Positions 7,134 through 24,269 are shown, numbered from the stretch's first letter. The stretch: 64,000 nucleotides of DNA from Spirulina sp. (GCA_044070495.1 JBIPSI010000001.1:128001-192000); one strand, 5' to 3'. Notes: generated by a model from the letters alone, not told the origin. Program-made: numbers and translations.

Positions 7134-8093
7134 TTAAGTATCAGGGTGTTTTTCACATGTCTTTAACGCCCGTTTGTATTCCTCTTGGATTTGGTCTGCC
7201 ATCCACTCAGGTTCAAGGATTCTGACATTGCTGCCGTACTGCAAAATCCGCTGCCGAAACCAAAACCAGTGATCTTCAGTAGTTTCGATATCCACAAACT
7301 GGCCATCAGAATCTCGATGCAGCTCAACTTCGTTAGCTCGACGGGGTTGGTAGCTCGCCAAGGGGCCACTCATGCGATAGCGAATTTTTTCGGTGGGGAA
7401 GTAGAGCCGAGACCAAGGGGTAGTAGAGGCTGGGTAAACCTTGAGAATCCGATCTACTCGAAGAATCTGATTTTGCTCGATACTGGGACGTTTATCGCTG
7501 TAGCGCGGTGAGAAGTCGGGAACATGGGCAAATAGGTAGAGCAAACCATTGTGGAATCGGAGTTCTGAAAGATCGCAATCCCAATTTCTGGCATTCCCTG
7601 CACTACTGCGATAGCGAATCACATAGCGGCACCGTTGCTGGAAACGGTCTTGTAGCTGCTTCACGGTTTCTTCGAGCTTGGCCTCGCCATAGTCTACCGG
7701 AGGGCTAAAGGCGACCTTGACCTGAGATGGTTCAACTGGTGCCCTGAGCTTGCCAAGGTTGAGCAGATCGCTGGCTTGGGCTGAAAATCCCATATCGCTG
7801 AGGATATAGGCTGCCAGTGCTATGGATTCTCGCTGCTTGGGAGAGAGCAGCACTGGGAAGCATGACTCCACCAACTCATAGGGGCGATTGGGCGCACTGT
7901 TAATCTTGAAGCCACAATCCCTGAGTTTCCGGATCGCTCGGCTGACCTTCTGATCGATGTCATCAGAGGACTGACCATGCTCATCCAAGAAATCGGTCAT
8001 CAGGAGGCTTAGCGCCTCACGGGTCAAAGGCTTCTCGGATAGGCACCGCAGGATTTCGAGGGAAAACGCTAGCGGACTATAGGTAGATGTCAT
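7134..8093 (-). CDS. WYL-domain transcriptional regulator (wHTH-WYL-WCX), divergent from the cas operon
   Basis: N-terminal HTH (RAIRKLRDCGF), LYLFA..LRVDRI WYL core, C-terminal ILQYGSNVRILEP; position matches the Sll7009-type arrangement of type I-D loci. Confidence 0.88.
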   Translation of the reverse strand: MTSTYSPLAFSLEILRCLSEKPLTREALSLLMTDFLDEHGQSSDDIDQKVSRAIRKLRDCGFKINSAPNRPYELVESCFPVLLSPKQRESIALAAYILSDMGFSAQASDLLNLGKLRAPVEPSQVKVAFSPPVDYGEAKLEETVKQLQDRFQQRCRYVIRYRSSAGNARNWDCDLSELRFHNGLLYLFAHVPDFSPRYSDKRPSIEQNQILRVDRILKVYPASTTPWSRLYFPTEKIRYRMSGPLASYQPRRANEVELHRDSDGQFVDIETTEDHWFWFRQRILQYGSNVRILEPEWMADQIQEEYKRALKTCEKHPDT

Positions 8094-8162
8094 TTTTTGA
8101 CGACAACTCTCTAGAAAGGGGTAATAACTTTATCTTAGTTGAATCACTCGGCCTAAACTGCT

Positions 8163-10286
8163 GTGAAAGTCTCCCTTGAACCTCTATATTCCAAGCTCAA
8201 TGACGGGCCAGGGCATTGCCCCCTTGGGTGTCAGGAGCGTTGTCGAGTGGCTCAAAACTCTGGACTCAAGCCCCCTGAAGGCCAGCCGTGCCCCTTGTCG
8301 GTGCACCAAGCCCGTACTTGGGAATCCGTAGTAAACGGAGATGCTGACGTTATCTTCAACACAGCGGCAACGGGGGATGGCAAGTCCTTGGCGGCTTACT
8401 TAGCAGGGCTTCTCGATAAAAACTTCAGAATCATGGGGTTGTACCCCACCATTGAGTTGGTGGACGACCAAGATAGAAGCCATCGAGATAGTGATGATCG
8501 GCAAGGTTGGCACTCTCTTTTTGGGTTAAATGCCGATAAGCGCATTGATCGCCTGTACGGTGAAGAACTCAGTCGCCGCGTTCGTGATGGGGAGAGTAAT
8601 CGGTTTCAAGAACTCCGCAAGGTGCTCGAAAATAAGCCATTAATCCTGACCAATCCAGATATCTTTCACCTAATCACGCATTTCCAATACCGCGATCCCG
8701 CCTATGGTGATACAGAATTGCCACTGTTAATGGCTGAGTTTCCCAATGTGTGGGTATTTGATGAGTTCCATATCTTTGGGCCACACCAGGAAGCGGCAGT
8801 GATTAACAGTCTTAGCTTTATCCGGCGAGCATCGCAAGGAAATCGTCGTTTCCTGTTTACCTCAGCTACTCCAAAGGAGTCTTTTATCAAGCAGCTTAGG
8901 GCAGCCGGGTTTAAGACAGAGGAAATTTCTGGCACCTACTCTGATCATGACCAGCCTGGATATCGCAAGATTCTTGAAGCGGTTGATCTAGAATTTGTGC
9001 AACTCAAAAAGCAAGATGCTAAGGGCTGGCTAATAGATCACCATGCCGATATCGCAGCAGCCCTAACCGCAGAAGACAAAGGCCGAGGGCTGATCATCCT
9101 CAACTCAGTTGCACAGGCGGGTCGAGTCGTCGAGCTTCTACGGGATCTTTTTCAAGACTCAATAGAGGTTGAAGAAATTAGTGGACGCATGGATCGCGTT
9201 TCTCGTCAGCAAACCCAGGATAAGCTGAAACATTCCGCTAAACCTGTCCTGATTGTTGGCACCTCTGCTGTGGATGTTGGGGTCGATTTTAGAATTAATC
9301 TGCTGATTTTTGAAAGTAGCAATTCCGCAACTGTTATCCAGAGATTAGGTCGCTTAGGCCGTCATGAGGGATTTAAGTGTTATCAAGCCATGGCTCTGCT
9401 ACCAGAACACACACCCTGGATTCTGTCGCGATTAAAACAAACCTTATCTGAGGACGTAGGCATTGACCGAGAAGCCCTGAGAGATGCCGTGTTGGAAGCT
9501 TTTGATGCTCCTAAGGAATTTCAGGAATATCAACGAGAATGGGGTGTAGTACAGGCCCATGGAATGCTAGCAAAATTACAAGTTAAGGAGTATGCCAAGG
9601 TGATGCAGCCCGTGTATGATCGCATCACCCAAGACTTGCAGCCTCTTTATGGAAATAATATTGCAGGCACGGCAAAATGGAAACTCCGGGACTTTGATGA
9701 AGCGCCAGATGTAGTAAAAGCCATTCAGTCCGAGCTAATTCGCTTTCGGGGTGGCACCAGCCTCCAGGCGGCTGTATGGGATGATAATCGCTTCTATACC
9801 TACGACCTACTCAGAATTCTGCCCTATACCCAGGTTGAAGTACTAGAGGAATCTGATTTCCTAGATGCGGCCCGTAGCCAAGGCTATCCAGACTATACCT
9901 TTCAATACGCCCAGGTTTTTCTAAAAGTACAGCGATGGGTTGATGAGCGGATTGATATTCAACTGCGTTCTGGGCGCGACAGTAGCGAACTACAAGGGTG
10001 CACCTTGATTTTGCTTGACAAGCTACGCCTGACTCACCATCCACAGGCTGAAGTCATCAACTGCCTGAGCCGCAAAAAGCTTCTCAGTTTTCTAGTACCG
10101 AGTGACTACTGGAAAGTGCGAGATGACCTTCGAGTTGGCCCTTTGTTTGGGCTATACCCACTGACTGACAGCTCTGAGAAGAACTATGCCTGTGCTTTTA
10201 GCCAAGATGCCTTGATACTTAAGGCACTAAAAAATAGTCGATTAACTAAACTATGTCGTCAAAATTCTGATTCATTCTTTTTCTAG
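8163..10286 (+). CDS. cas3: Type I-D CRISPR-associated helicase Cas3'
   Basis: AATGDGKSLA Walker A, DEFH, TSATP, QRLGRLGRH; no HD domain. Confidence 0.93.
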   Translation: MKVSLEPLYSKLNDGPGHCPLGCQERCRVAQNSGLKPPEGQPCPLSVHQARTWESVVNGDADVIFNTAATGDGKSLAAYLAGLLDKNFRIMGLYPTIELVDDQDRSHRDSDDRQGWHSLFGLNADKRIDRLYGEELSRRVRDGESNRFQELRKVLENKPLILTNPDIFHLITHFQYRDPAYGDTELPLLMAEFPNVWVFDEFHIFGPHQEAAVINSLSFIRRASQGNRRFLFTSATPKESFIKQLRAAGFKTEEISGTYSDHDQPGYRKILEAVDLEFVQLKKQDAKGWLIDHHADIAAALTAEDKGRGLIILNSVAQAGRVVELLRDLFQDSIEVEEISGRMDRVSRQQTQDKLKHSAKPVLIVGTSAVDVGVDFRINLLIFESSNSATVIQRLGRLGRHEGFKCYQAMALLPEHTPWILSRLKQTLSEDVGIDREALRDAVLEAFDAPKEFQEYQREWGVVQAHGMLAKLQVKEYAKVMQPVYDRITQDLQPLYGNNIAGTAKWKLRDFDEAPDVVKAIQSELIRFRGGTSLQAAVWDDNRFYTYDLLRILPYTQVEVLEESDFLDAARSQGYPDYTFQYAQVFLKVQRWVDERIDIQLRSGRDSSELQGCTLILLDKLRLTHHPQAEVINCLSRKKLLSFLVPSDYWKVRDDLRVGPLFGLYPLTDSSEKNYACAFSQDALILKALKNSRLTKLCRQNSDSFFF

Positions 10287-10299
10287 GACAGCGATCTCC

Positions 10300-13287
10300 A
10301 TGACTCTCCTACAAGACTTACTGACGATCACATTGCGAGAAGACCCCGATCCGGTTCTTCAAAAGTTTGTTGAAACTGTTGTGCCAGCCATGGAACGGGA
10401 ATTTGCGCTAATTTCTGCCCTCGGAGGATCTGAAAATGTACATCACCATCGCCTCAGAGACGATCCTTACAGGGAAGAGAAAAGCGAACGATGGAGCCAG
10501 AGTGCTGACCAAAGTTTACTTGTTCACGTTCTTAACGCCATTTTGACGGCATGGAACCTGCAAAATTTCTTAGATGAGGATAAACAGCTTACCGAAGAAG
10601 AAAAGAATCTTCTATGTTTAGGACTAACCCTCCATGATTACAACAAGTATTGCCAAGGGGAAGAAGAAGACTCTCCGAAAGCCCATGAGGTTGACGAGAT
10701 TTTGAAACTTTGCCAAGACCTTGGAGAAAAGCTAAACTTCTCAGCATTTTGGTCAGAGTGGCAAGACCATCTCAGCGAGATTGGCTTTCTAGCTCAGAAT
10801 ACACAATATAAAGCAAGGACAAATATAGCTTCGGTTAATTGGCCCACCTTCAAAAGTGACAGCCGTCGCTTGAGAAATCCTTTGCGGCCTCTGTTAGCTT
10901 TTGGTGATATTGCAGTTCATATGAGCAACCCGTCAGACATATTGACCACCACTAGAGGTAATCGACTAAAAGAACACCTAGGTTCTCTTCAAATAGACCG
11001 CAAGCTAGTCTACCATCGCCTTCGCGACTGTACTGGGCTACTCAGCAGTGGTATCCATAATGCTGTTCTGCACTTTACTAAAGAACTCGATTGGCAACCC
11101 ATCTTGTTTTTTGCCCAGGGCGTTGTCTATCTTTCACCCCAAGACGCAGAAACCCCAGATCGAGATATCGTTCAGAGCGCCCTTTGGGAGCAAATTCAGA
11201 CTTTGCTAGCGGGCAAGATGCTCAGTGGTGAGATTGGCTTTAAGCGTGATGGCAAGGGTCTAAAGGTTGCGCCGCAAACTCTGGAGCTATTCAGCCCGTC
11301 CCAGCTCATTCGTGGCTTACCTGATGTTATCAAGGCAAAGGTTGGTAATGCTAAGAACCCAGCTACACCAAAGCGTCTAGAATCACTTGGTCTTAGTGAA
11401 GAAGAACTCAAACAATTAGAGCCAGCAGCAGATTTACGGAGTGATCGTTTAGCTGAACTCATCTTTCTAGCCCAGAAAGAGTTTTTTGCAAACGTTCCTG
11501 AGTTTGCCCCGTGGGTACTCAAGTATCTAGGCATTGATCAATCCATAACGCAAGAACAAACACAGGTTCAATCCGGGGGAGTTAACTATGGCTGGTATCA
11601 TGCGGCAGCCCATTATATCGCTGTGGCTGGGGGCAACACACTAGATGACGATCAAACGCAGGAAGTCTTAGAGTCTTTCTCTAATGCCCTTGCAGACTGG
11701 GCGGAAGAGCATGATTTGCTAGGAAGTCATAAAAGCCCAACCCAGGATATTTTTCTAGACTATTTGAACCAAAACCTCGAAGTCTCAGGCTGGCATCAAG
11801 AGACAACTCCTTTTGAAGATGAGTTATCAAGCTATGTCGCTGCCAAAACAAAAGCAGCACGACAACCGATCTGCTCGTTAAGCTCTGGCCAGTTTGCCTC
11901 TGAGGATCAGATGGATTCTGTTGTACTATTCAAGCCGCAGCAATACAGCAACAAAAATCCACTAGGTGGCAGACAGATTAAACGTGGCATCTCTAAAATT
12001 TGGTCGCTAGAAATGTTGATCAGACAAGCTATGTGGGCAGTTCCCGCAGGAAAGCTAGAAGACCAAAGACCTGTTTTCCTCTATATCTTTCCAGCCTATG
12101 TCTATTCACCTCAGATGGCAAAAGCCATTAGGGTTTTAGTCAATGAACTCAAAGACCGCATCAACTTTTGGGATATTCGTAAATTCTGGCAAGAGAATGC
12201 TATGGATATCCAGTCCTTGAGAACGTACCCATGGCTAGACGAGGAAGAAAAATTTGGTCGTTTTTCAGATCTGACGTATGGAGGTAGTAAGCGGAAAGAC
12301 GCTGAAGAAATTGAAAAACGAGATATTCCGTTTGTTGCCGTTACCTACACAACCACACGGGGTAAAACTGTCACCGATGCTTGGATTGAGCCTGCTTTCT
12401 TAGCACTTCTCCTTCCTATACTTTTAGGAGTTAAGGTAGTAGCCTCAACCAGTCCGGCTCCACTCTACAGTAGTGACAGCGAGTTTCGAGAGTCTGTGAA
12501 GCTAGATGGGCCAGCCGGATTTTGGAATTCCTTAGGCTTGCCAGACTCGCTACATCTTGAAGCGTGGATGCAGGGAAGGGTTCAACGATTAGATGAAATC
12601 TTGAATCGGTTATTAATCGCCTATGCCCTTCATCTTGACTGTGAAGGTGATCCACCCGATCCACGCTGGCGGGCCTTTGCGAATACGGTTCGAGACATCA
12701 TGACAGATGTGCTAAATATTTTCTCGCTTGCAGCATCACATTTTTGTGATCTGAAACGAGAACCCTACGCGGAGGAAGTAAGACGTTACTGGAGCTATGC
12801 AAAAATCTGGTCAGAAGGAAATGTTGAGATGCAAGAAAAGTTGAAGATTACCAAGCGTCTTGTGGCTGAATATCGCAGCTTCTATCGAGTCAACCTGAGT
12901 GAGTCTAGCCATGCTATTCTTTTGCCTCTTTCCAAGGCACTAGAATTGATCTTATCTGTTCCAGAAGATTGGGATGATGAAGAACTGATTTTACAAGGTT
13001 CTGGCCAACTTCAAGATGCACTAGATCGACAAAAAGTATATCGGCCTATCTTGTCCGATAAAACTCTTCCTTATCAAGAGCGTAAGATGCAAGAGTTTGA
13101 AGCTATCCAAGCTTTCATGACTACTTGCGTTAATGACTTGTTTGGTGAAATGTGCAAAGGTGATCGTGCTTTGCTCCAAGAAAACCGAAATCGAATCAAA
13201 TCTGGTGCTGAATTTGCCTATCGTTGGCTAGCCCTGCAAGAAAATAAAGCCCAATCTGAAAATCAAAAATCTGAAGGAGAAGAGTAA
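10300..13287 (+). CDS. cas10d: Type I-D large subunit Cas10d/Csc3 with N-terminal HD nuclease
   Basis: DQSLLVHVLN and LTLHDYNK HD motifs, FKPQQYSNK, 995 aa, located between cas3 and csc2. Confidence 0.93.
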   Translation: MTLLQDLLTITLREDPDPVLQKFVETVVPAMEREFALISALGGSENVHHHRLRDDPYREEKSERWSQSADQSLLVHVLNAILTAWNLQNFLDEDKQLTEEEKNLLCLGLTLHDYNKYCQGEEEDSPKAHEVDEILKLCQDLGEKLNFSAFWSEWQDHLSEIGFLAQNTQYKARTNIASVNWPTFKSDSRRLRNPLRPLLAFGDIAVHMSNPSDILTTTRGNRLKEHLGSLQIDRKLVYHRLRDCTGLLSSGIHNAVLHFTKELDWQPILFFAQGVVYLSPQDAETPDRDIVQSALWEQIQTLLAGKMLSGEIGFKRDGKGLKVAPQTLELFSPSQLIRGLPDVIKAKVGNAKNPATPKRLESLGLSEEELKQLEPAADLRSDRLAELIFLAQKEFFANVPEFAPWVLKYLGIDQSITQEQTQVQSGGVNYGWYHAAAHYIAVAGGNTLDDDQTQEVLESFSNALADWAEEHDLLGSHKSPTQDIFLDYLNQNLEVSGWHQETTPFEDELSSYVAAKTKAARQPICSLSSGQFASEDQMDSVVLFKPQQYSNKNPLGGRQIKRGISKIWSLEMLIRQAMWAVPAGKLEDQRPVFLYIFPAYVYSPQMAKAIRVLVNELKDRINFWDIRKFWQENAMDIQSLRTYPWLDEEEKFGRFSDLTYGGSKRKDAEEIEKRDIPFVAVTYTTTRGKTVTDAWIEPAFLALLLPILLGVKVVASTSPAPLYSSDSEFRESVKLDGPAGFWNSLGLPDSLHLEAWMQGRVQRLDEILNRLLIAYALHLDCEGDPPDPRWRAFANTVRDIMTDVLNIFSLAASHFCDLKREPYAEEVRRYWSYAKIWSEGNVEMQEKLKITKRLVAEYRSFYRVNLSESSHAILLPLSKALELILSVPEDWDDEELILQGSGQLQDALDRQKVYRPILSDKTLPYQERKMQEFEAIQAFMTTCVNDLFGEMCKGDRALLQENRNRIKSGAEFAYRWLALQENKAQSENQKSEGEE
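12829..13287 (+). CDS. cas11d: Cas11d small subunit from an in-frame internal start in cas10d
   Basis: AGAAGGA at 12813-12819, then in-frame ATG at 12829 (MQEKLKITKRLVAEYRSFY..., 152 aa); internal translation of Cas11d is established for type I-D. Confidence 0.7.
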   Translation: MQEKLKITKRLVAEYRSFYRVNLSESSHAILLPLSKALELILSVPEDWDDEELILQGSGQLQDALDRQKVYRPILSDKTLPYQERKMQEFEAIQAFMTTCVNDLFGEMCKGDRALLQENRNRIKSGAEFAYRWLALQENKAQSENQKSEGEE

Positions 13288-13289
13288 TC

Positions 13290-14282
13290 ATGTCTGTCCT
13301 CAAAAACCTAAAGCCTGAGTTCCATACAGCTTTCCCTCGTCTTGCTTCTGGCAAGTATGTGCACTTCTTGATGGTGCGTCACAGTCAGTCCTTCCCGGTT
13401 TTTCAGACTGATGGAGTTTTGAACGTAGCCCGTACCCAGGCTGGGTTAGAAACCACGGATAAATTTAGTCGGTTGGTCATGTTTAAGCGCAAGCAAACTA
13501 CTCCAGAGCGCTTGGCTGGGCGCGAACTTTTGCGATCTCTCGGTCTAACCACAGCGAACAAGGAAGATAAGGCCAAATTTTGCGAGTACAATGGCGAGGG
13601 ATCCTGTAAGAAATGCCCCGACTGTATTATCTACGGCTTTGCCATTGGCGATAGTGGTTCTGAACGGTCAAAGGTCTATTCAGATTCGGCCTTCTCACTC
13701 AGTCCCTATGAGCAGTCCCATAAGAGCTTTACCTTCAATGCTCCCTTTGAAGGGGGAACGATGAGCGAAGCGGGTACTATGCGAAGCTCCATTAATGAGC
13801 TTGACCATATTTTGCCTGAGGTTAATTTTCCCACAGTCGAGACTCTAAGAGATCCCACTTATGAAGGCTTTATCTATGTCTTAGGTAATCTGCTCCGCAC
13901 CCGTCGCTATGGGGCACAAGAGTCTCGCACTGGCACTATGACTAATCATCTAGTGGGTGTCGTCTTTACGGATGGAGAAATCTTCAGCAACCTATACTTT
14001 ACCCAAGCACTCTACGATGCCCTCAAAGATGATTTGAGTGCTCCAATTGACATAGTACTTACCAAGGCTCAAGAAGTGGCAGAAATCTTATTGGCCAAAG
14101 AACCTTTGAGAAAGAGTCAGCAAGTCTTTGGAGAGCAGTTGAACCAACTTCTCTCAGAGGTGACAGCAATTTACCAAAATGAAGCTGAGTTGCAGACTAT
14201 TATTGGCAGTTTATACCAGCAAACTCAGACCTATGCTGAAACCTTTGGGGCCAGCTCAGGTAAAAAGGGCAAAGGTAAGTAG
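13290..14282 (+). CDS. cas7d: Type I-D Cas7/Csc2
   Basis: FKRKQTTPERLAGRELLR, CxxCPDCIIYGFAIG, RYGAQESRTG. Confidence 0.93.
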   Translation: MSVLKNLKPEFHTAFPRLASGKYVHFLMVRHSQSFPVFQTDGVLNVARTQAGLETTDKFSRLVMFKRKQTTPERLAGRELLRSLGLTTANKEDKAKFCEYNGEGSCKKCPDCIIYGFAIGDSGSERSKVYSDSAFSLSPYEQSHKSFTFNAPFEGGTMSEAGTMRSSINELDHILPEVNFPTVETLRDPTYEGFIYVLGNLLRTRRYGAQESRTGTMTNHLVGVVFTDGEIFSNLYFTQALYDALKDDLSAPIDIVLTKAQEVAEILLAKEPLRKSQQVFGEQLNQLLSEVTAIYQNEAELQTIIGSLYQQTQTYAETFGASSGKKGKGK

Positions 14283-14302
14283 GCATCTGGGGAAATAATG
14301 AG

Positions 14303-15061
14303 ATGCTTTATCAATGTGATTTAACCCTCCATGACAACGTTTTCTTCGCCACCCGCGAAATGGGAACGCTGTTTGAAACTGAGAAATATCTGCACAACTG
14401 GGCACTTAGCTATGCCTTATTCGAGGGGCAATACTTGAACCGCCCCTACCGATTGCAAGGAGCACACGCCCAAAAGCCTAGCTACCTCGATAGTGGCCAC
14501 GAACAGAGCCTACACCCCTTAAATGAGGCAGGGATTTATGTTTTTCCTGCTCGGCCCTTGCAGTGGTCTTACCAGGTGAATACCTTTAAGGCGGCCCAAG
14601 TTCACTACTACGGCAAATCCAAGCAGTTTGGTGATAAGGGAGCTGACCGCAACTACCCGATTAACTTTGGTCGTGCTAAGGAGTTAGCTGTGGGTAGCAC
14701 TTATCGAACGTATATTGCTGCAACGGATCGATCAGTCTTGCCCACCTGGATGCGGCAGCAGGACGATGACAAACGTCAGACCTGGATTCGTTTAGGAAAG
14801 TGGGCTGCCAAGATCCATATTCGGGCTACTCCTGTAACAGGATTGGAGGAAAGAAAAGGCAAGTTTATTTGTCGTCACCCTCTCAATCCTTTAGATCTGT
14901 TACCTTCTACCGTGTTACTGATTTACAACCGGATTGTAATGCCTCCCGTGAGTTTAGTCAGCCAAGCTCAGTTAGAAGGAGATTATTGGAGACTGCCTGA
15001 TGACACCGACTTACCCATTGGTTCTTACTATGGAGCAAGATACGTTGCCAATGCCTCCTAA
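14303..15061 (+). CDS. cas5d: Type I-D Cas5/Csc1
   Basis: LHDNVFFATREMG..YLHNWALSYA, GRAKELA, WIRLGKW. Confidence 0.92.
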   Translation: MLYQCDLTLHDNVFFATREMGTLFETEKYLHNWALSYALFEGQYLNRPYRLQGAHAQKPSYLDSGHEQSLHPLNEAGIYVFPARPLQWSYQVNTFKAAQVHYYGKSKQFGDKGADRNYPINFGRAKELAVGSTYRTYIAATDRSVLPTWMRQQDDDKRQTWIRLGKWAAKIHIRATPVTGLEERKGKFICRHPLNPLDLLPSTVLLIYNRIVMPPVSLVSQAQLEGDYWRLPDDTDLPIGSYYGARYVANAS

Positions 15062-15839
15062 ATCGACATCCATCTATTCCTTGGTGGTGCTGCTAGGATC
15101 TGCGGGGCAAGGGCAACTACCTAAAACCCTAGGCCGAGCGATTCATGCTCAGGTTTTAGACTGGATGCAAGCTGGGAATCCTGTGATTGCCCAGGTGATC
15201 CACAGTACCCAAACATCCCCCATCAGTCTTTCGGGATTGATTGGAAAACGACGCAAGCATGGTACCCAACCAGATGATGAATTTTACTTCCGAATTAGCC
15301 TGCTAGATGGCGATTTGCTACAGCCTTTGCTAACAGGGATAGATGCGTGGGGAACTAAGCCTATTTCCCTTGGCAAGTTCCCCTTTGTTTGTCGAGGTTT
15401 TGAAGCATTACCTGGTGGACACAAACAAGTTCAAATGGGAGATTATCGTTTGTTAGGAACTACCAGCCCAATCCGTGATGACATTTCGCTAGAATTTCAA
15501 TCACCTACTGCCTTCAAACAGGGCAAAAAAACAATCCAGCCCTTCCCTCTACCGGAACTTGTCTTTGGTAGCCTGCTCCGCCGCTGGAATGCCTTTGCCC
15601 CAGAGGATCTACACTTTCCCCAAATTGAATGGCAGGGCATGGTTTCGGCCTTTGACCTCAAAACCCAGGTGCTGCGGCTGGAAGGTGGCCCTCAAATTGG
15701 CTCTGTAGGCTGGGTGCGCTATCGTTTTCCTGATGCCGAACAAGCCCGCATCGCGTCTATTTTGGCCCAATACGCCTTCTTTGCCGGAGTTGGGTACAAA
15801 ACTACGATGGGAATGGGGCAGGTGCAGCCCTTAACGTGA
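15051..15839 (+). CDS. cas6: CRISPR endoribonuclease Cas6
   Basis: LGRAIHA, FQSPTAFKQG, C-terminal G-loop FAGVGYKTTMGMG; ATG at 15051 overlaps the cas5d stop. Confidence 0.92.
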   Translation: MPPKSTSIYSLVVLLGSAGQGQLPKTLGRAIHAQVLDWMQAGNPVIAQVIHSTQTSPISLSGLIGKRRKHGTQPDDEFYFRISLLDGDLLQPLLTGIDAWGTKPISLGKFPFVCRGFEALPGGHKQVQMGDYRLLGTTSPIRDDISLEFQSPTAFKQGKKTIQPFPLPELVFGSLLRRWNAFAPEDLHFPQIEWQGMVSAFDLKTQVLRLEGGPQIGSVGWVRYRFPDAEQARIASILAQYAFFAGVGYKTTMGMGQVQPLT

Positions 15840-15875
15840 GCATGGAACTACGATTTACCTACGAGGCTATCCACC

Positions 15876-16136
15876 ATGACTATCCAAGACTTAATTGCGG
15901 CTCTTGCCACCTTTGATCCCCAAACGCCCGTTGTCGTCAGTGGGTATGAAGGGGGCTACAACGACGTTAGCTTTGTTCGTCCTCTATCTATCCAGCTTAA
16001 TGTCAATGACAAGTCTTACTACGGTGCTCACGATTGTGTTAAAGGTACTACGGTACCCGATATCCCTTTCACGTCAGTTGTTTATTTAGGTGGGTTTAAC
16101 CCAAACTGCGATAACCCCGAAGACTCTTACCACTAA
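15876..16136 (+). CDS. Small hypothetical protein (phage-like MTIxDLIxxL...GYEGG type)
   Basis: 86-aa ORF with GAGG RBS, co-oriented inside the cas operon. Confidence 0.7.
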   Translation: MTIQDLIAALATFDPQTPVVVSGYEGGYNDVSFVRPLSIQLNVNDKSYYGAHDCVKGTTVPDIPFTSVVYLGGFNPNCDNPEDSYH

Positions 16137-16190
16137 GGCTAACTAAAGCTAACTATTGCCTGAAAGTTTATTACCTTAAGCTTCAAGATT

Positions 16191-16634
16191 ATGCAATCCC
16201 CTTCTCTGACAGAAATTCAATCTAAAATTCCTAGGGTAGTGGAACAAACTCCCTACCTAAAATTGCTTGTGTTGTTTGGGTCTAGAGCAACAGCTAACGA
16301 CACCGAAAACAGTGATTGGGACTTTGCTGTTCTATACGATGAAGAACTGCGCCATCTCTACGAGACAGAAGCATTAGATTGGCTAAGAATTTGGTCTATC
16401 CTCCAAGCAGAGTTTAAACTTTCTGAGCAGCAGATTGACGTAGTCATTCTTAACCAATGTTCAAAAATCTCGGCCCACAATGTGGCTGAGACTGGATTGC
16501 TGTTATATGAAAGCTGCCCAGGCGAGTTTCAGAAATTTCGAGCCAGTCACTTAATGAGTTTATCCGAAAAAGCAGCCTATATCGATGATAAACGAATGGA
16601 AGTTAGGGCAGCTCTAGCCAGGTGGAAAAGATGA
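16191..16634 (+). CDS. mntA: MNT minimal nucleotidyltransferase antitoxin (MntA family)
   Basis: LFGSRA-x7-SDWD (GSx10DxD) motif; IDVVIL; ATGA overlap with the HEPN gene. Confidence 0.9.
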   Translation: MQSPSLTEIQSKIPRVVEQTPYLKLLVLFGSRATANDTENSDWDFAVLYDEELRHLYETEALDWLRIWSILQAEFKLSEQQIDVVILNQCSKISAHNVAETGLLLYESCPGEFQKFRASHLMSLSEKAAYIDDKRMEVRAALARWKR

Positions 16635-17104
16635 GCAATTTGGATGTTCCGGGTGTTCTCAAAAAATTATCCGGCATGGCCAGACGATTTGACACCCTGA
16701 AGCGATACGAGAATATTTCTCTGGAAGACTATCTGCTCAACGAGGATGTTCAAATTATCACTGAGCGGCTACTTGAACTCATTATTCAGGCTGCTATTGA
16801 TATCAATAAAATGTTTCTGAAGCAGCTTGTCAATGTCAGGTTTGTGCCAGATAGTGGACAGCCGCTTACTAATGCAGAAACATTTCGTCTTATGGCCGCT
16901 CACGAATTTATCCCATCCAATCTAGCCGAAGTCCTAGCTAGATCCGGCCAGTTTCGCAATGTTCTAGCTCATTTCTATGACGATATTGATTCTAGGCAGG
17001 TCTATGATGCATTACAAATCACCCTAGATTACTATCCAGACTACATCGAAGCGATTCAAGATCATATCGATAGTCTATTTCATGATTTGGAGGTTAACCC
17101 ATGA
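16631..17104 (+). CDS. hepT: HEPN ribonuclease toxin (HepT/DUF86 family)
   Basis: ERLLELIIQAAIDI and RNVLAHFY (Rx4HxY) motifs. Confidence 0.9.
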   Translation: MSNLDVPGVLKKLSGMARRFDTLKRYENISLEDYLLNEDVQIITERLLELIIQAAIDINKMFLKQLVNVRFVPDSGQPLTNAETFRLMAAHEFIPSNLAEVLARSGQFRNVLAHFYDDIDSRQVYDALQITLDYYPDYIEAIQDHIDSLFHDLEVNP

Positions 17105-17373
17105 CCCAAGCCAAAGTCGTCAGCGTTAACGACCAGCGACAGATCGATCTTCCCGAAGACATTCTCCAGACCCTCAATCCAGGGGATGAATATTTGGTCT
17201 GGCAAACCGGAGATAGCATTTTGCTGCAAAAAATCCAAAAACCCTCTGCCTTTGAGGCCTTGCTGGCAAAGGTGGACGCCCTAGGCCCCGACCCCGACCA
17301 ACTCAGCATGGACGCCCTTACGGCCTTGGTTAAGGACGTGCGCCGCCAACTACCCCAAACAACCAATAACTAA
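17101..17373 (+). CDS. AbrB/MazE-like DNA-binding protein
   Basis: VVSVNDQRQIDLPEDI..LNPGDEYLVWQTGDSILLQKI swapped-hairpin pattern; ATGA overlap with the HEPN gene. Confidence 0.65.
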   Translation: MTQAKVVSVNDQRQIDLPEDILQTLNPGDEYLVWQTGDSILLQKIQKPSAFEALLAKVDALGPDPDQLSMDALTALVKDVRRQLPQTTNN

Positions 17374-17408
17374 TAACCAATAACCACCCCCCAATAACCA
17401 ATAACCAA
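17359..17408 (+). repeat. Heptamer tandem repeats (AACCAAT-type) before cas4
   Basis: AACCAAT AACTAAT AACCAAT AACC..CCAATAACCAATAACC ending just before the cas4 ATG. Confidence 0.9.
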
Positions 17409-17409
17409 A

Positions 17410-17985
17410 ATGCCCGACGACTACCTTCCCCTGGCCTACCTCAATGCTTGGGAATATTGCCCGCGCCGATTTTACTTGGAATACCAGCTCGGTGAAATGG
17501 CCGACAACGAACACATCATCCTCGGTCGTCACCTGCACCGAGTGGTAGACGACGAAGGCCAACAATACGAGGGCGATACCCTCATGCGCCGCCATCAGTG
17601 GGTGTGGAGTGATCGCCTTCAGATCAAAGGCATCATCGACCTAGTTGAGCAACGGGACGATCAACTCGTGCCCGTAGAATTCAAAAAAGGCACGATGGGC
17701 CGCCACCTCAGCGATCACTTTCAGCTTTGTGCCGCTGGGCTTTGCCTAGAAGAACGCACGGGCCAAGCCATCTCCCACGGCGAAATTTTTTACCATAGCA
17801 ATCGGCGACGGCAGCAGGTACCCTTTACCCCGGAACTGAGAACGGCGACGGAGCAAGCCATTGCGGCAGCCCATGCAGCTCTAGAGACATCAATTCCCAA
17901 GCCAATCACCCATAAACGCAAGTGTCAGGCATGCAGTTTACAGAATATTTGTTTGCCGTTTGAGGTGGATTTTTTGGGGGGATAG
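17410..17985 (+). CDS. cas4: CRISPR-associated exonuclease Cas4
   Basis: YCPRR, GIIDLV..PVEFKKG, QLCA, KCQACSLQNIC Fe-S cysteines. Confidence 0.95.
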   Translation: MPDDYLPLAYLNAWEYCPRRFYLEYQLGEMADNEHIILGRHLHRVVDDEGQQYEGDTLMRRHQWVWSDRLQIKGIIDLVEQRDDQLVPVEFKKGTMGRHLSDHFQLCAAGLCLEERTGQAISHGEIFYHSNRRRQQVPFTPELRTATEQAIAAAHAALETSIPKPITHKRKCQACSLQNICLPFEVDFLGG

Positions 17986-18238
17986 TTATTTGTTATTTGT
18001 TATTCGTTGTTTGTTATTCGTTATTCGTTATTTGTTATTCGTTATTTGTTATTCGTTATTTGTTATTCGTTATTTGTTATTCGTTATTCGTTATTCGTTA
18101 TTCGTTATTCGTTATTCGTTATTCGTTATTCGTTATTCGTTATTCGTTCCTAGCAACCAACAACCAGTAACCAACAACCAGTAACCAACAACCAGTAACC
18201 AACAACCAGTAACCAACAACCAGTAACCAACAACCAAC
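17985..18238 (+). repeat. Bipartite heptamer array: 23 x GTTRTTY, hinge GTT-CCTAGC, 12 x AACCAAC/AACCAGT
   Basis: Read directly; fills the whole cas4-cas1 intergenic region up to the cas1 ATG. Confidence 0.95.
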
Positions 18239-19216
18239 ATGCCTACTCTTTATGTCACTCAACCCGACGCTGTTTTAAGTAAGAAGTACGAAGCTTTTTC
18301 CGTTGCTCTGCGCCAGGAGGATGGTTCTTGGCAGAAGCGATCTGTTCCGGCCCAGACGGTGGAGCAGGTGGTGCTGATGGGCAATCCCCAAATCACAGGC
18401 GATGCGCTGACCTATGCACTGGAGTTAGGGTTGCCCGTCCACTACCTAACCAGTTTTGGTAAATATTTGGGTTCGGCGTTGCCGGGGCATTCTCGTAATG
18501 GGCAGTTGCGGCTGGCTCAGTATGCGCTTTATTTGGATGCTGAGAAGCGGCTGGCTCTGGTGAAGAACATTGTGGAGGCCAAAATTCATAACCAATTTGG
18601 CGTTCTCTATCGCCATGGGCAGCGGGATAACCCTCTTAAGGCTCGCAAGAAGGCAGCCCAGCAGCAATCGACGCTGGACAAGGTGCGCGGCATGGAAGGG
18701 CTGGCGGCACGGGAATACTTTGCCTGCTGGCCCGCCATGCTGAAGCACGACTGGGGCTTTTCAGGCCGCAACCGTCGTCCGCCCAAGGATCCGGTGAATG
18801 CCCTGCTGAGCTTTGCCTATGCCCTGCTGCGGGTGCAGGTGACGGCGGCGGTGCATGTGGCAGGGCTGGATCCCTACGTGGGTTATCTCCATGAGGTTCA
18901 CCACGGTCAACCCGCCCTGGTGCTCGATTTGATGGAAGAATTTCGTCCGCTGATTGCCGATAACCTGGTGCTGGCAGTACTCAACAACCGCGAGATTCAG
19001 CCCAAAGACTTTACCGAAAGCCTGGGAGCCTACAATCTCTCTGACGCTGGCCGTAAAGCTTTTCTCCAAGCCTTTGAACGCAAAATGACCGATGAATTCA
19101 AGCATCCGGTCTTTGACTACCGCTGTTCTTACCGTCGTGCGATCGAACTTCAGGCTCGTCTGCTTAGTCGTCATTTACAAGAAGATATTCCTTATAAACC
19201 TCTGATGTTGCGGTGA
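18239..19216 (+). CDS. cas1: Type I-D Cas1
   Basis: RGMEGLAAREYF, RNRRPPKDPVNALLSFAY, GYLHE, LDLMEEFRP. Confidence 0.96.
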   Translation: MPTLYVTQPDAVLSKKYEAFSVALRQEDGSWQKRSVPAQTVEQVVLMGNPQITGDALTYALELGLPVHYLTSFGKYLGSALPGHSRNGQLRLAQYALYLDAEKRLALVKNIVEAKIHNQFGVLYRHGQRDNPLKARKKAAQQQSTLDKVRGMEGLAAREYFACWPAMLKHDWGFSGRNRRPPKDPVNALLSFAYALLRVQVTAAVHVAGLDPYVGYLHEVHHGQPALVLDLMEEFRPLIADNLVLAVLNNREIQPKDFTESLGAYNLSDAGRKAFLQAFERKMTDEFKHPVFDYRCSYRRAIELQARLLSRHLQEDIPYKPLMLR

Positions 19217-19220
19217 GGGG

Positions 19221-19257
19221 TGTTGGTTATTGGTTATTGGTTATTGGTTATTAGTTA
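19221..19257 (+). repeat. Heptamer tandem repeats (TATTGGT-type, 5 units) after cas1
   Basis: TGTTGGT TATTGGT TATTGGT TATTGGT TATTAGT; reverse complement of the ACCAATA tracts. Confidence 0.9.
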
Positions 19258-19272
19258 GGGGGGGTGTGGGGT

Positions 19273-19638
19273 ATGGGTAGGGGGTTTAAGGAGTTGGAGG
19301 TTTATCAATTGTCGGAGCAGTTGGCTGACGCAATTTGGGAGATTGTTTTGACCTGGGATTTTTTCGCTAAAGACACTGTAGGCAAACAATTGGTCAGAGC
19401 TGCCGACAGCATTGGAGCCAATATTGCCGAGGGCACTGGCCGAGGCAGCTACCAAGATAATGCCCGTTTTATAACCATTGCCCGTGGCTCCCTCACCGAA
19501 ACCCAGCACTGGCTCCGCCGTGCCCATAACCGCCAACTTCTCACCACCGACCAAGTCGCCACCCTCAAACCCCTTATCGATACCCTAGCCCCCAAACTCA
19601 ATGCTTATCGCAATGCCATTCTTAATGCGAGGCGTTAA
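19273..19638 (+). CDS. Four-helix-bundle protein (23S rRNA-IVP / TIGR02436-like; Avd-related fold)
   Basis: FKELEVYQLS, QLVRAADSIGANIAEGTGR, FITIARGSLTETQHWL family motifs. Confidence 0.9.
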   Translation: MGRGFKELEVYQLSEQLADAIWEIVLTWDFFAKDTVGKQLVRAADSIGANIAEGTGRGSYQDNARFITIARGSLTETQHWLRRAHNRQLLTTDQVATLKPLIDTLAPKLNAYRNAILNARR

Positions 19639-19640
19639 TT

Positions 19641-19786
19641 GTTATTCGTTGTTTGTTATTCGTTGTTTGTTATTCGTTATTCGTTATTCGTTTCTAGTAA
19701 CCAACAACCAATAACCAATAACCAATAACCAATAACCAACAACCAACAACCAACAACCAATAACCAACAACCAATAACCAACAACC
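19641..19786 (+). repeat. Bipartite heptamer array: 7 x GTTRTTY, hinge GTT-TCTAGT, 12 x AACCAAY + AACC
   Basis: Read directly; ends at the cas2 ATG. Confidence 0.95.
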
Positions 19787-20080
19787 ATGACAAAACTCCT
19801 CTATCTAATCATTTACGATCTCCCTGACGACAAGGCCGCTAACAAACGCCGCAACCGTCTCCACAAGCTACTGTCGGGCTATGGTCAGTGGACTCAGTAC
19901 AGCGTGTTTGAGTGTTTTTTGACGGCGACTCAGTTTGCGCGGCTACAGGTGCAGCTAGAACGCCTGATTAAGCCAGAGACAGACTCGGTACGACTTTATG
20001 TTTTGGATGCTGGGGCGGTGAAGCGAACGCTGACCTACGGCTCTGAGAAGCCCCGCCAAACTGAGGCGATCATCCTATGA
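19787..20080 (+). CDS. cas2: CRISPR-associated Cas2
   Basis: YLIIYDL, YGQWTQYSVFEC, DSVRLY. Confidence 0.96.
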   Translation: MTKLLYLIIYDLPDDKAANKRRNRLHKLLSGYGQWTQYSVFECFLTATQFARLQVQLERLIKPETDSVRLYVLDAGAVKRTLTYGSEKPRQTEAIIL

Positions 20081-20289
20081 TGGAGGGGTGGCAATTTTCT
20101 GGCAAACCTCAGCAAGCCCAATTTCCCTGGGGGGTTCGCCAAAACCTTGGAACCTTGAAAATTCAATACTTTTTGATGATCCACCTAGGGGTAGGAGGTA
20201 TCCTAGAGGGGCGAGAGGCAACCGTTCTTAGGAGGTTCGCCAAAACAAGGGCCAAAACCCTTGCCAGACAAGGCTTCCAGGGCGCGGCC
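20081..20289 (+). promoter_or_regulatory. CRISPR leader
   Basis: Non-coding region between cas2 and the first repeat; GGTTCGCCAAAAC occurs twice (20133 and 20234). Confidence 0.8.
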
Positions 20290-23200
20290 CTCGCCAACCA
20301 CCCAATCTCGGCAACGAGACTGAAACAGGGCTGGTTTGATCCATCCTGAGGATGGATCACTCTCGCCAACCACCCAATCTCGGCAACGAGACTGAAACGT
20401 TTCGGTCTTTGGCGAGCGCCTGCGCCTGGAAAAACTCGCCAACCACCCAATCTCGGCAACGAGACTGAAACATATCTCTGCTGAAATCTCTAGGCTTAAT
20501 CGACATACTCGCCAACCACCCAATCTCGGCAACGAGACTGAAACAGGGCTGGGTCTAGGGCTTCATCAATGGCTCGTTCTGCTCGCCAACCACCCAATCT
20601 CGGCAACGAGACTGAAACCGGTCTCCGTTCTCCTGATCAATAATCTCCGTCCCGCTCGCCAACCACCCAATCTCGGCAACGAGACTGAAACAACGGCCTA
20701 TGGCGACATACGAACAACAACTGAAGCTCGCCAACCACCCAATCTCGGCAACGAGACTGAAACGCGCTGGCACGGCGGGGGGATCGACGCCGCCGTCGAC
20801 TCGCCAACCACCCAATCTCGGCAACGAGACTGAAACACCCACGAAGGCAAATCTAGCTACGCCCCTAGCCTAACTCGCCAACCACCCAATCTCGGCAACG
20901 AGACTGAAACAGTTGTTTGGCCTCCAGCCCTTCGATCCGCTCTTTCTCGCCAACCACCCAATCTCGGCAACGAGACTGAAACTAGTCTGGGGCGCGGTCC
21001 AGTAGTTCGTCGTTGCTGACTCGCCAACCACCCAATCTCGGCAACGAGACTGAAACAAAAACACCTTGACCCGAAACTGGGTCTTAGGAACGCTCGCCAA
21101 CCACCCAATCTCGGCAACGAGACTGAAACATCAAAATTCTGATCACCTTTCCCAAAAAACACCCCCTCGCCAACCACCCAATCTCGGCAACGAGACTGAA
21201 ACATATGCTGATCATGCCAAAGCTGTTGAGCCATCCAACTCGCCAACCACCCAATCTCGGCAACGAGACTGAAACATCGCTGCGCCGCGCCACTGCCGCC
21301 GAAAGCCCTCTCGCCAACCACCCAATCTCGGCAACGAGACTGAAACCAGCTTGTTTTATCGGGGCCAAATCTGCTTTTCTACTCGCCAACCACCCAATCT
21401 CGGCAACGAGACTGAAACGAGGATTTATGGGAGCTGCTGAGATGCCAAAAAGAAGCTCGCCAACCACCCAATCTCGGCAACGAGACTGAAACGAGCCGTC
21501 GATCCATCACATCGACCTGGCCCATCCCCTCGCCAACCACCCAATCTCGGCAACGAGACTGAAACGAGACCTCCCCGATTGAGGCGCAGGCGCAGATCGA
21601 CTCGCCAACCACCCAATCTCGGCAACGAGACTGAAACACTTCGTAGTTGAGGCAGAATCGGGCACCGCCAGGGCATCCCCTCGCCAACCACCCAATCTCG
21701 GCAACGAGACTGAAACCTTTAGCATCCAGCGCCGCTTGTAGGTCGGTCTGGTCTCGCCAACCACCCAATCTCGGCAACGAGACTGAAACCCAACCTCTTT
21801 GTCTGGGATGATCCGAGCCATCAAGTCTCGCCAACCACCCAATCTCGGCAACGAGACTGAAACCGTCAAAACTTGTGAGCTTCTTCGCTAACTCATCACT
21901 CGCCAACCACCCAATCTCGGCAACGAGACTGAAACTAGGCTCTGAAACTACCGCTGGGGACGGCGTTGGGGGCTCGCCAACCACCCAATCTCGGCAACGA
22001 GACTGAAACTAAACTTCCCATGGGTCGTTGCTGTTGCTAGCAGGCTCGCCAACCACCCAATCTCGGCAACGAGACTGAAACAGGTAAAGCTCATCGTCAG
22101 GCGTGGCCACATCAGGGGCTCGCCAACCACCCAATCTCGGCAACGAGACTGAAACATATCGGGTAACCATTGCCGATCAAAGTCGCTGTTAACTCGCCAA
22201 CCACCCAATCTCGGCAACGAGACTGAAACTGACCGATGGCTCTTGAAGACCTTTACGGAAAGATTCTGGCTCGCCAACCACCCAATCTCGGCAACGAGAC
22301 TGAAACCGCTCCCTGCCACCGTCTAGGAACTTTGAGAACGGCTCGCCAACCACCCAATCTCGGCAACGAGACTGAAACTTTGCCCACGGGGGTCGGCGAT
22401 CCAAACTTGTCGGCCTCGCCAACCACCCAATCTCGGCAACGAGACTGAAACAGGGATGGCCCTCCCCGTCTCGATCTAAGTACGGGCTCGCCAACCACCC
22501 AATCTCGGCAACGAGACTGAAACCCCCGAATCAACGGCTCGGCGAAATCGTTAAATCCACTCGCCAACCACCCAATCTCGGCAACGAGACTGAAACAGCT
22601 CCTAGCAGCGTGATTGCCTGTTTCGAGCCTACTCGCCAACCACCCAATCTCGGCAACGAGACTGAAACGTGCCGTTCTTGCTGAACAGGTTTGCGAATAG
22701 GGCTCGCCAACCACCCAATCTCGGCAACGAGACTGAAACTTGTTGAATTGAACTTTGATTCGCTGAATGGGCGGAGCTCGCCAACCACCCAATCTCGGCA
22801 ACGAGACTGAAACGACATTCTTTGTCTAGAGCGGCATTGATTCTTTTTGCTCGCCAACCACCCAATCTCGGCAACGAGACTGAAACAAAACAAACGTACA
22901 AAGGAGGACGTATGTTAAAATCCAGCTCGCCAACCACCCAATCTCGGCAACGAGACTGAAACGAGGAATTGCACCTCCGGCAGTAGTCGCCACTGCCCCT
23001 CGCCAACCACCCAATCTCGGCAACGAGACTGAAACCCCTCGGTGCTTCGAATTCCCCTGGGGGTATACGTTCTCGCCAACCACCCAATCTCGGCAACGAG
23101 ACTGAAACTCCTCGCGGACGTTGGCCCAGTAGTGGGCGGAGTCCTCGCCAACCACCCAATCTCGGCAACGAGACTGAAACACTGCCCTCAGATACTAGTC

Positions 23201-24269
23201 CCACAATTCGGGTTTCTCGCCAACCACCCAATCTCGGCAACGAGACTGAAACCCATCCATCAGTTGCAGATAATCAATAAACACCATCTCGCCAACCACC
23301 CAATCTCGGCAACGAGACTGAAACGCTCTCGCATCCCCGCTACCCCTGCCATTACCCGCAACTCGCCAACCACCCAATCTCGGCAACGAGACTGAAACTT
23401 GCTGGGCTATTTCTAACACCATCTGCCACATTATCTCGCCAACCACCCAATCTCGGCAACGAGACTGAAACTGGACTCATCAACACCGTGCCAATGTGCC
23501 AATCCGAACTCGCCAACCACCCAATCTCGGCAACGAGACTGAAACCCTGCCCTCGCTCGCATGGCCCAACAAGAGTTACCTCGCCAACCACCCAATCTCG
23601 GCAACGAGACTGAAACAAAGAGGCGCGGGAATATCACCGCAATGAGAAACACCACTCGCCAACCACCCAATCTCGGCAACGAGACTGAAACGGGGCACGG
23701 CATTTCCTTCGGATGGCGATGGAGAAGCTCGCCAACCACCCAATCTCGGCAACGAGACTGAAACGACTGGCTACGCAGCACCTATGACGCCAACAAGGTC
23801 TCGCCAACCACCCAATCTCGGCAACGAGACTGAAACGGGACGGGCGGGGATGGTGGCGCTGCTGGCACCCACCTCGCCAACCACCCAATCTCGGCAACGA
23901 GACTGAAACCTTACTCCGGTAAGGTTGGCGCGGTCATATCCGCATACTCGCCAACCACCCAATCTCGGCAACGAGACTGAAACGGCGCTTCTCCCCTGGC
24001 GGCGGCGTAGGCTTTGGCTCGCCAACCACCCAATCTCGGCAACGAGACTGAAACTGTTTCCTCCATCGCCTTCTTGATGGCCCCAGACCAGGCTCGCCAA
24101 CCACCCAATCTCGGCAACGAGACTGAAACCGGAAATCGTCGTTGTAGCGGTACAACCGTTTCACCCTCGCCAACCACCCAATCTCGGCAACGAGACTGAA
24201 ACTGGGAGAATGGGAATCACCGGATACGGAAAAAAGATCTCGCCAACCACCCAATCTCGGCAACGAGAC
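20290..24269 (+). CRISPR. Type I-D CRISPR array: 37-bp repeat CTCGCCAACCACCCAATCTCGGCAACGAGACTGAAAC, 55 repeats (last truncated) and 54 spacers of ~34-42 bp
   Basis: Hand-counted identical repeats with a TCTCG-GCAA-CGAGA hairpin and ACTGAAAC 3' handle; the degenerate terminal repeat at 24239 fixes the orientation. Confidence 0.98.

Follow-up and report, generated by a model that had tools for sequence, protein, structure and literature searches.

Introduction

Structures have been solved for the large "23S rRNA intervening-sequence protein" family, which to our knowledge has no known function; Avd of diversity-generating retroelements belongs to a related four-helix-bundle fold family. In Coxiella burnetii, an open reading frame (ORF) of this family, S23p, is carried by the intervening sequence (IVS) in helix 45 of the 23S rRNA, an element that has been described as selfish, as gained by horizontal transfer and as cut out by RNase III (PMC4990558), and the Leptospira IVS was the subject of Ralph and McClelland in 1993 (cited in PMC3936711). 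Eighteen PF05635 genes have been reported from cas loci, one of them between cmr3 and cmr2 in the cyanobacterium Pleurocapsa (Zhang, Doak and Ye 2014, PMC3936711), and the 23S rRNA intervening-sequence protein is listed among new associations of the CRISPR adaptation module (Altae-Tran et al. 2023, PMC10910872). Here, a four-helix-bundle (4HB) gene of this family is examined that lies between cas1 and cas2 of a type I-D CRISPR-Cas locus, in a 64,000-nt stretch of DNA from Spirulina sp. (GCA_044070495.1 JBIPSI010000001.1:128001-192000; referred to as the window, with positions counted from its first letter). We consider it fairly probable that the cas1-cas2 spacer is a copy of a widespread, insertable foldback cassette that surrounds a 4HB gene and is built like a 23S rRNA IVS, rather than a component of the cas system.

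Likeness of the cas1-cas2 spacer to described elements

The spacer between cas1 (18239..19216; PF01867, E 3.5e-93) and cas2 (19787..20080; PF09827, E 3.2e-22) opens with an outer 5' arm, (TTGGTTA)5, at 19223..19257 (five copies by Tandem Repeats Finder). The 4HB gene follows at 19273..19638, with 121 aa if translated from the ATG at 19273 (in the ORF list its start is instead a GTG at 19264) and matches to PF05635 and TIGR02436. Behind it stand an inner G/T arm of GTTATTC and GTTGTTT units at 19633..19692 (Tandem Repeats Finder unit CGTTATT, 8.6 copies), a TCTAGT hinge at 19693..19698, which was read in the sequence and forms a loop in the predicted fold, and an A/C arm, (AACCAAY)12, at 19699..19786 (12.7 copies, to 19787) that is both the 3' arm of the cassette and the leader of cas2, whose ATG comes directly after it. 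The genes, arms, hinges and array described here from 17101 to 24269 are on the plus strand. We propose that such a cassette, with its G/T arm, PF05635 gene, inner G/T arm, hinge and long complementary A/C arm set at an operon junction, would be an insertable, largely selfish element.

In common with ORF-bearing 23S rRNA IVSs, the spacer holds a PF05635 gene in a loop, between complementary flanks that make a long stem, at about 430-600 nt. Unlike those elements, it lies between cas1 and cas2 and not in rRNA, its stem is made of tandem 7-nt units, it has an extra inner hairpin, and cutting here would sever an mRNA, in contrast to an rRNA whose pieces the ribosome keeps together. Because it is located in an mRNA operon, the element is not itself an rRNA IVS. 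With the 23S_rRNA_IVP genes of cas loci (PMC3936711, PMC10910872) it shares the presence of a PF05635 gene among cas genes; unlike here, those accounts, in the portions bearing on these genes, speak of a possible cas-associated function and make no mention of flanking repeats or of presence and absence in relatives. Miniature inverted-repeat transposable elements (MITEs) and insertion sequences (IS) likewise have inverted ends, occur in multiple copies and are present or absent at orthologous sites. The cassette differs from MITEs and IS in that it has no transposase and no target-site duplication and that its termini are tandem arrays with a unit that varies by copy, and for want of a transposase and a target duplication it is not a conventional transposon. 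Nor is it a diversity-generating retroelement, because no reverse transcriptase (RT) was among the window genes scanned; no RVT domain was found in the 15 genes at 7134-20349, template and variable repeats not having been looked for. A full-text literature search, which left subscription journals and the original papers on short tandemly repeated repetitive (STRR) sequences largely uncovered, yielded no account of repeat-armed 4HB cassettes outside rRNA. An element that began as an rRNA curiosity becomes a general, studiable cassette design, with fixed polarity, a lineage-specific period, and gene and arms that are gained and lost together.

Filled, empty and shifted sites in orthologous loci

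Five orthologous type I-D loci with Cas1 proteins 94-100% identical were compared, including that of the window, which lies in contig C1 of its assembly (G000; 5.31 Mb, 74 contigs, 56.7% G+C); close relatives of the window found by name belong to the cyanobacterial genus Nodosilinea (related locus L063, the same place as L014). In G048 and G052, where Cas1 is 95-96% identical, the cas4-cas1 junction consists of 2 nt and the cas1-cas2 junction of 13-27 nt, with no tract at either and no 4HB gene. G019 has a long A/C tract before cas1 and a cassette at cas1-cas2 whose arms are longer and whose hinge, TCTAG, is the same, and no cas4 was present within 1.5 kb upstream. In G010, a 4HB gene 88% identical to that of the window, with short heptamer arms, occupies the cas4-cas1 junction, and there are no tracts at cas1-cas2; this copy is read in two frames, owing to a frameshift or a sequencing error. 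The window itself has the 570-nt 4HB cassette at cas1-cas2 and a 253-nt gene-less hairpin at cas4-cas1. As judged by these orthologous sequences, the gene and its arms are gained or lost as a unit, and the window contributes to this a filled, empty and shifted series within a single CRISPR adaptation operon.

The gene-less hairpin begins at the end of cas4 (17410..17985; PF01930, E 8e-23) with a G/T arm, (GTTATTY)23, at 17985..18148 (Tandem Repeats Finder unit GTTATTC, 23.4 copies, 91% matches), followed by a CCTAG hinge at 18149..18153, read in the sequence and looped in the predicted fold, and by an A/C arm that is also the cas1 leader, (AACCAACAACCAGT)6, at 18154..18238 (5.9 copies of 14 nt, 100% matches, listed to 18239). 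It occupies the exact site of the G010 cassette, so that the window also provides a hairpin without a gene where a relative carries a filled site. Its arm family and CTAG hinge are those of the hairpin behind the 4HB gene. Most simply, it would be a relative or remnant of a cassette of this kind, and a deletion from one direct G/T arm of a cassette to the other could produce such a hairpin. With the insertions, the tight coupling of cas4, cas1 and cas2 is exchanged for long foldback spacers.

Complementary arms accompany 4HB genes

Among the 642 tandem tracts of the genome, just 12 complementary pairs lay within 1.5 kb of each other, and nine of the 12 belonged to 4HB loci: six to the window locus, one to a locus on C19 and two to C20. 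The remaining three were a distant pair on C38, a gene-less hairpin on C51 and an ORF-enclosing pair on C7. All four PF05635 genes of the genome have a tandem arm in front and its reverse complement behind, with a different unit each time (TTGGTTA/AACCAAT in the window, GAAGGTTG/CAACCTTC, GGGGGTGAG/CTCACCCCC and TTCAAAG/TTTTGAA). The (TTCAAAG)n-armed cassette (G000:C16:82450-83591, L004) seems to interrupt an IS200-like Y1 transposase gene, for which the Pfam Y1_Tnp match covers just profile positions 5-60 ahead of the insert. On C7 (G000:C7:63491-63799, L192), a 71-aa ORF without a Pfam match stands between pntA and pntB, bounded by heptamer G/T and A/C arms of the window's arm family; this may be a cassette with other cargo. 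The C51 hairpin (G000:C51:12915-13069, L193) is made of G/T and A/C heptamers between hoxE-like and hoxF-like genes, and has the same polarity relative to its operon as the cas4-cas1 hairpin.

For wider comparison, a stem score was used that measures local pairing of the 250 nt preceding a gene with the 350 nt following it, with thresholds of 45 and 60. (Duplex-energy folding of the same 250 x 350 nt flanks gave large energies everywhere and no discrimination, and was dropped in favor of this score.) The 4HB family was found in 23 of 41 related genomes, with 54 matches; the genus sample comprised 27 loci with an ORF found by phmmer, 23 of which had complete flanks and were scored. At this level the stem score was at least 45 in 22 of the 23 loci and at least 60 in 16. 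Crudely called genes of the window's genome had a median of 29 and a 95th percentile of 39.5 (sample of 1471); 68 of 3737 reached 45 and 18 of 3737 reached 60, the 18 including the 4HB genes and their neighbors. The other high scorers of that genome had unrelated, dispersed palindromic elements at their flanks. In G037, a 4HB gene (L021; C23:827278-827708) is split by a small palindromic dispersed repeat, a kind of element that flanks many genes in this genome.

The association extended beyond the genus. A sample of a second 4HB clade was gathered with a closer alignment (A2), which covers one clade, from Nostoc, Calothrix, Microcoleus, Symploca, Anaerolineae, Acidobacteriota and others; it held 80 named loci, 67 of them with full flanks. 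Scores of at least 45 and 60 were reached by 58/67 and 51/67 of these, compared with 2/114 and 0/114 for displaced controls at the same loci. Of 401 cyanobacterial genomes sampled, 43 contained the window's own 4HB clade (59-72% identity), and 24 of its 29 loci scored at least 45 versus none of 58 controls, so that in the two wider samples pooled, 2 of 172 controls reached that threshold. An initial annotation, made from the window's sequence alone, had suggested testing 4HB genes across genomes for enrichment of flanking 7-nt tracts; complementary flanks were present at 22/23, 58/67 and 24/29 loci, against 2/172 controls. The same annotation held that equally frequent tracts of like polarity at arbitrary junctions would speak against a special arrangement. 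The outcome of that test is mixed: same-polarity tracts are indeed common at other gene starts, and it is the complementary pairs that are nearly confined to 4HB genes.

The G-rich arm was the 5' arm in all loci for which this was recorded (65/65 in the second clade and 24/24 in the window's own), and the layout of 5' arm, gene, inner G arm, hinge and C arm is common to many copies. The period of the arms was 7 in 29/29 loci of the window's own clade, with units such as TTGGTCA, TTAGTCA, TTGTCAG, GGTAATG and TTGGTTA, and mostly 8 in the other clade. On a FastTree tree of 123 4HB proteins, 87 of which carry a period label (38 of 7, 41 of 8 and 8 of 9), arm period changed five times, compared with a mean of 34 and a minimum of 25 in 200 label shuffles. 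As relatives share labels by descent, this result shows just that the period passes down with the gene lineage, even as the sequence of the unit is replaced. Between orthologous cassettes, a difference in unit often affects both arms simultaneously, which implies that the arms evolve in concert; template switching across the hairpin is our guess at how. The window's part in this is the fixed polarity and lineage-bound period of the arms.

These data bear directly on the possibility that STRR heptamers simply expanded by slippage at neighboring junctions, the 4HB gene being among them by coincidence. In its favor, heptamer tracts are common in this genome, with 216 period-7/14 tracts of at least 28 nt, about one per 25 kb, and a solo A/C leader on G000:C17 is a case of local expansion. 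Against it, complementary pairs are rare and nine of the 12 lie at 4HB genes, complementary arms at 4HB genes elsewhere greatly exceed the control level, and tracts and gene are jointly absent from G048 and G052. The slippage reading is therefore largely refuted, and we regard it as highly improbable. Nor is the accumulation of heptamers at this locus a chance cluster: it is the densest in the genome, with six tracts (482 nt) in 2.5 kb compared with at most three at any other place, and its 164-nt (GTTATTY) tract is the longest period-7 tract of the 5.31 Mb.

Other sites occupied by 4HB cassettes

In the genus, cassettes were found in either orientation at junctions of kdp, opp, other ABC, znu, thiolase/acyl-CoA dehydrogenase and other operons. 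At the kdpA-kdpB junction, an antisense 4HB cassette of 564-758 nt occurs in 4 of 15 genomes, and the other 11 are empty, with 25-107 nt and no repeats; by KdpB identity, the carriers are not each other's closest relatives. The neighbors of cassettes were mostly housekeeping operons, and targeting of defence islands as a general rule was dropped for that reason. One relative of the 4HB gene (L017) lies inside a 23S-like rRNA sequence, as judged from its flanks, and there too the flanks are complementary. Cassettes also occur within genes: in G026 (L005:600-3314) and G005 (L006:100-2502), a GGGAGTC-armed 4HB cassette is located within a large ORF that has a DPACGSASF methyltransferase-like motif and no Pfam match, the host frame of 905 aa staying open through the entire cassette. 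L005 additionally has an in-frame, gene-less GGGAGTC hairpin exactly where L006 has the full cassette, which parallels the window and G010 at cas4-cas1.

Taken together with the orthologous cas loci, these sites bear on the readings raised by the initial annotation. A scaffold dedicated to cas4, cas1 and cas2 is not supported, given relatives with 95-96% identical Cas1 that lack the tracts and the 4HB gene, A/C leaders throughout the genome and cassettes of like design in other operons. A repeat-mediated gene cassette is supported by gene and arms being present or absent together and by the same packaging around most relatives of the gene; empty sites, about which the annotation had asked, exist in G048 and G052, at both junctions, and the suggested link to 23S rRNA IVSs gains from L017, within its 23S-like rRNA sequence.

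4HB genes were found beside cas1 repeatedly in the genus: in the window and G019 (cas1-cas2), in G010 (cas4-cas1), and at L011 and L032. At L011 (G004:C114), the 4HB gene is antisense between RT-cas1 and cas2; at L032 (G024:C2), it is co-oriented after RT-cas1, without repeat arms, and is followed by a gene with a ParE-like toxin domain. The 4HB protein could be a working accessory of CRISPR adaptation, an Avd-like, nucleic-acid-binding oligomer that aids Cas1-Cas2 or RT-Cas1, with the repeats as mere packaging. The recurrence beside cas1, including the armless L032, is in keeping with this, as are the 18 PF05635 genes in cas loci (PMC3936711) and the listing among new adaptation-module associations (PMC10910872). 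Against it, the gene is not conserved in orthologous type I-D loci, being wholly absent where Cas1 is 95-96% identical and both displaced to the other junction and frameshifted in G010; it is antisense to cas1 and cas2 at L011; most genus cassettes are in unrelated operons (kdp, opp, ABC, thiolase, znu); and no PADLOC model matches the protein. We thus think an accessory role improbable. For CRISPR annotation, this means that a recurrent "cas-associated" gene may be a passenger and not a part of the cas system.

The cassette reading may be extended, tentatively and at a probability that we put as low, to a 4HB protein that recognizes the periodic arms of its own cassette (7-nt here and mostly 8-nt in the other clade). 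The whole would then be a mobile element without a transposase, able to insert within genes as well as at operon junctions and to maintain the complementarity of its arms; some STRR repeats would be its arms or remnants, and the rRNA IVS would be the site at which it was first noticed. The initial annotation had raised binding of the 7-nt periodic RNA by the oligomer, for which the sole, indirect hint here is that arm period follows the 4HB protein tree.

Predicted folds and possible processing

As sense RNA, 19205-19800 gave a predicted fold of -219 kcal/mol (z -7.5), in which (UUGGUUA)5 pairs with the distal A/C arm in an outer stem that reaches the cas2 AUG (complementary pair score 71), and an inner hairpin is formed by the inner G/U arm with the proximal part of the A/C arm. 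The cas4-cas1 hairpin is moderate in the sense direction (-51 kcal/mol, z -3.15) and stronger in antisense (-67.9, z -5.2). By analogy with rRNA IVSs, the arms on the operon transcript may form long duplexes that are cut by RNase III, which would separate the cas1, 4HB and cas2 messages, and the A/C arm could afterwards serve as the leader of the next gene. Cutting together with use of the A/C leader would explain how a 570-nt insert can stand between cas1 and cas2 without silencing cas2, and this leader, provided by the 3' arm, may be the reason why cas operon and cassette tolerate each other.

The same pairings could instead act as an RNA switch, as the initial annotation had suggested: the cas1 and cas2 leaders (A/C) would be masked by pairing with G/T arms, and translation of the adaptation genes would be tuned through processing, through a change of pairing partner or by the 4HB protein. 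In line with this, the A/C arms run directly into the ATGs, and the predicted folds show them wholly base-paired as far as the cas2 AUG; all tracts of the locus belong to one complementary family, with six complementary pairs, so alternative pairings are available; and A/C tracts are leaders genome-wide. Speaking against a switch, close relatives have the same cas genes but no tracts, the cas4-cas1 hairpin folds weakly as sense RNA (z -3.15) and better as antisense, and cassettes can be antisense to the host operon, as in kdp. We judge a switch to be quite improbable.

Several observations weigh against the insertable cassette that we prefer. Filled and empty junctions differ by no target-site duplication, the spacer being simply replaced, and the 4HB gene is the only ORF of the cassette, with no transposase; the pattern of presence and absence could reflect one ancient insertion followed by repeated precise loss. 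Stem scores fell below 45 in 9 of the 67 second-clade loci, in 5 of the 29 loci of the window's own clade and in a single genus locus, L032, located 3' of RT-cas1. The arms are not always inverted, as a kdp cassette in G053 has the same-strand unit on both sides, and in G005 the arms are a hybrid of two types. Gene-less repeat hairpins occur away from 4HB genes, on C51 and at several other loci, which makes the remnant reading of the cas4-cas1 hairpin circumstantial. The antisense strand of 19205-19800 folds as well as the sense strand, and nothing in the folds is therefore specific to RNA over DNA hairpins. Finally, recurrent 4HB genes beside cas1, taken with the two papers on cas association, leave a CRISPR-related role conceivable.

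A/C tracts as leaders

The distance from A/C tract to ATG is 0 nt for cas1 and cas2 and about 1 nt for cas4, and when the sequence was read directly, no GGAGG-like, purine-rich ribosome-binding motif was found before any of the three. Across the genome, 39 (AACCAAY)-type tracts of at least three units were examined for an ATG within 15 nt that opens an ORF of at least 100 aa. Such an ORF followed 14 of the 39 tracts in the A/C sense, 1 of the 39 in the G/T sense and 247 of 5000 random positions (4.9%). A looser test on all skewed tracts was discarded as too noisy, with 879 of 3000 random positions passing. The second cas1 of the genome, on C20, also has an A/C tract before its ATG. (AACCAAY)n tracts abutting start codons without a Shine-Dalgarno sequence are thus a genome-wide leader habit, not special to the cas locus.

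A solo A/C tract at G000:C17 is absent from the closest relative and is replaced by degenerate A/C-rich sequence in two others, from which it follows that leaders of this type expand locally. That solo tracts might be footprints of cassettes was rejected for this site, as 30 loci orthologous to it had no cassette in the 170 nt upstream.

Heptamer direct repeats in forward orientation that end just before start codons, often without a Shine-Dalgarno sequence, have been described in Beggiatoaceae and various cyanobacteria (PMC4679880). The tracts of this genome resemble these STRR or TAACTGA repeats in being intergenic heptamer tracts at many loci, forward and before start codons that lack a Shine-Dalgarno sequence, and the 216 tracts of at least 28 nt have the tandem 7-nt units, intergenic position and many loci per genome by which cyanobacterial STRR are recognized. 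They differ in that the published repeats are direct, with one inverted case in the part of PMC4679880 concerned with them, and here complementary pairs enclose a gene and track the 4HB family. In the window, ordinary A/C leaders can be told apart from cassette arms, and cyanobacterial heptamer repeats gain one concrete structural context beside their ordinary role as leaders.

Remaining features of the locus and the 4HB protein

Upstream, the type I-D locus, which spans 8163-24269 by profile searches, comprises Cas3 helicase, Cas10d/Csc3, Csc2, Csc1 and Cas6, then a nucleotidyltransferase/HepT pair; downstream, the order is an AbrB-like gene, cas4, cas1, the PF05635/TIGR02436 4HB gene, cas2 and the CRISPR array. 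The AbrB-like gene (17101..17373, an ORF of 90 aa) has no Pfam, NCBIfam or PADLOC match, and its stop codon lies within the first A/C tract, (AACCAAT)n, the cas4 leader at 17361..17408 (Tandem Repeats Finder period 7, 6.9 copies). In G048, G052 and G010 (L036:201-916), a PIN-domain gene is located between the AbrB-like gene and cas4. At 17101-17409 of the window this gene is missing, the (AACCAAT)n tract being there instead, and the antitoxin-like AbrB gene is left an orphan.

The tract order given by the initial annotation, [AC]-cas4-[GT/hinge/AC]-cas1-[GT]-4HB-[GT/hinge/AC]-cas2, was recovered in full, all six tracts being found by Tandem Repeats Finder. Two further statements of it also agree with our results: that A/C arms reach the ATGs of cas1 and cas2, and nearly that of cas4, without a Shine-Dalgarno sequence, and that heptamers are missing from the cas3-to-cas6 junctions, as no period-7 tract was found by Tandem Repeats Finder at 8163-16131. 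Its picture of a complementary scaffold was right in one part, (TTGGTTA)5 and the AACCAAT units of the tract at 19699-19787 being perfectly complementary, and too strong in another, with one or two mismatches per heptamer between the GTTATTY and A/C arms. A scan of 15800-20400 for promoters and terminators gave counts no higher than in shuffles. In a search of sequencing runs, none of RNA was listed for this DNA, and the best DNA runs contained 0.21-0.24 of its sequence words. The CRISPR array, with a 37-nt repeat, is at 20290..24269 (Tandem Repeats Finder rows with a period of about 73). A 90-aa ORF at 20077-20349 overlaps the cas2 stop codon, enters the first CRISPR repeat and has no family match; it is probably leader sequence and not a gene.

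The 4HB product matched PF05635 with 102.1 bits (cut-off, 33.8) and TIGR02436 with 96.2 bits (cut-off, 24), and by sequence similarity alone it resembles PDB entries 2GSC (E 9.3e-10; the solved XCC0516) and 2RLD. A motif GxxRxxxSxxxNxxE has been described for PF05635 genes (PMC3936711). Its R-x3-S-x3-N-x2-E part is present in the 4HB product as RAADSIGANIAE, with the leading G displaced, and R39 and S43 are invariant in a diverse 4HB alignment (A1).

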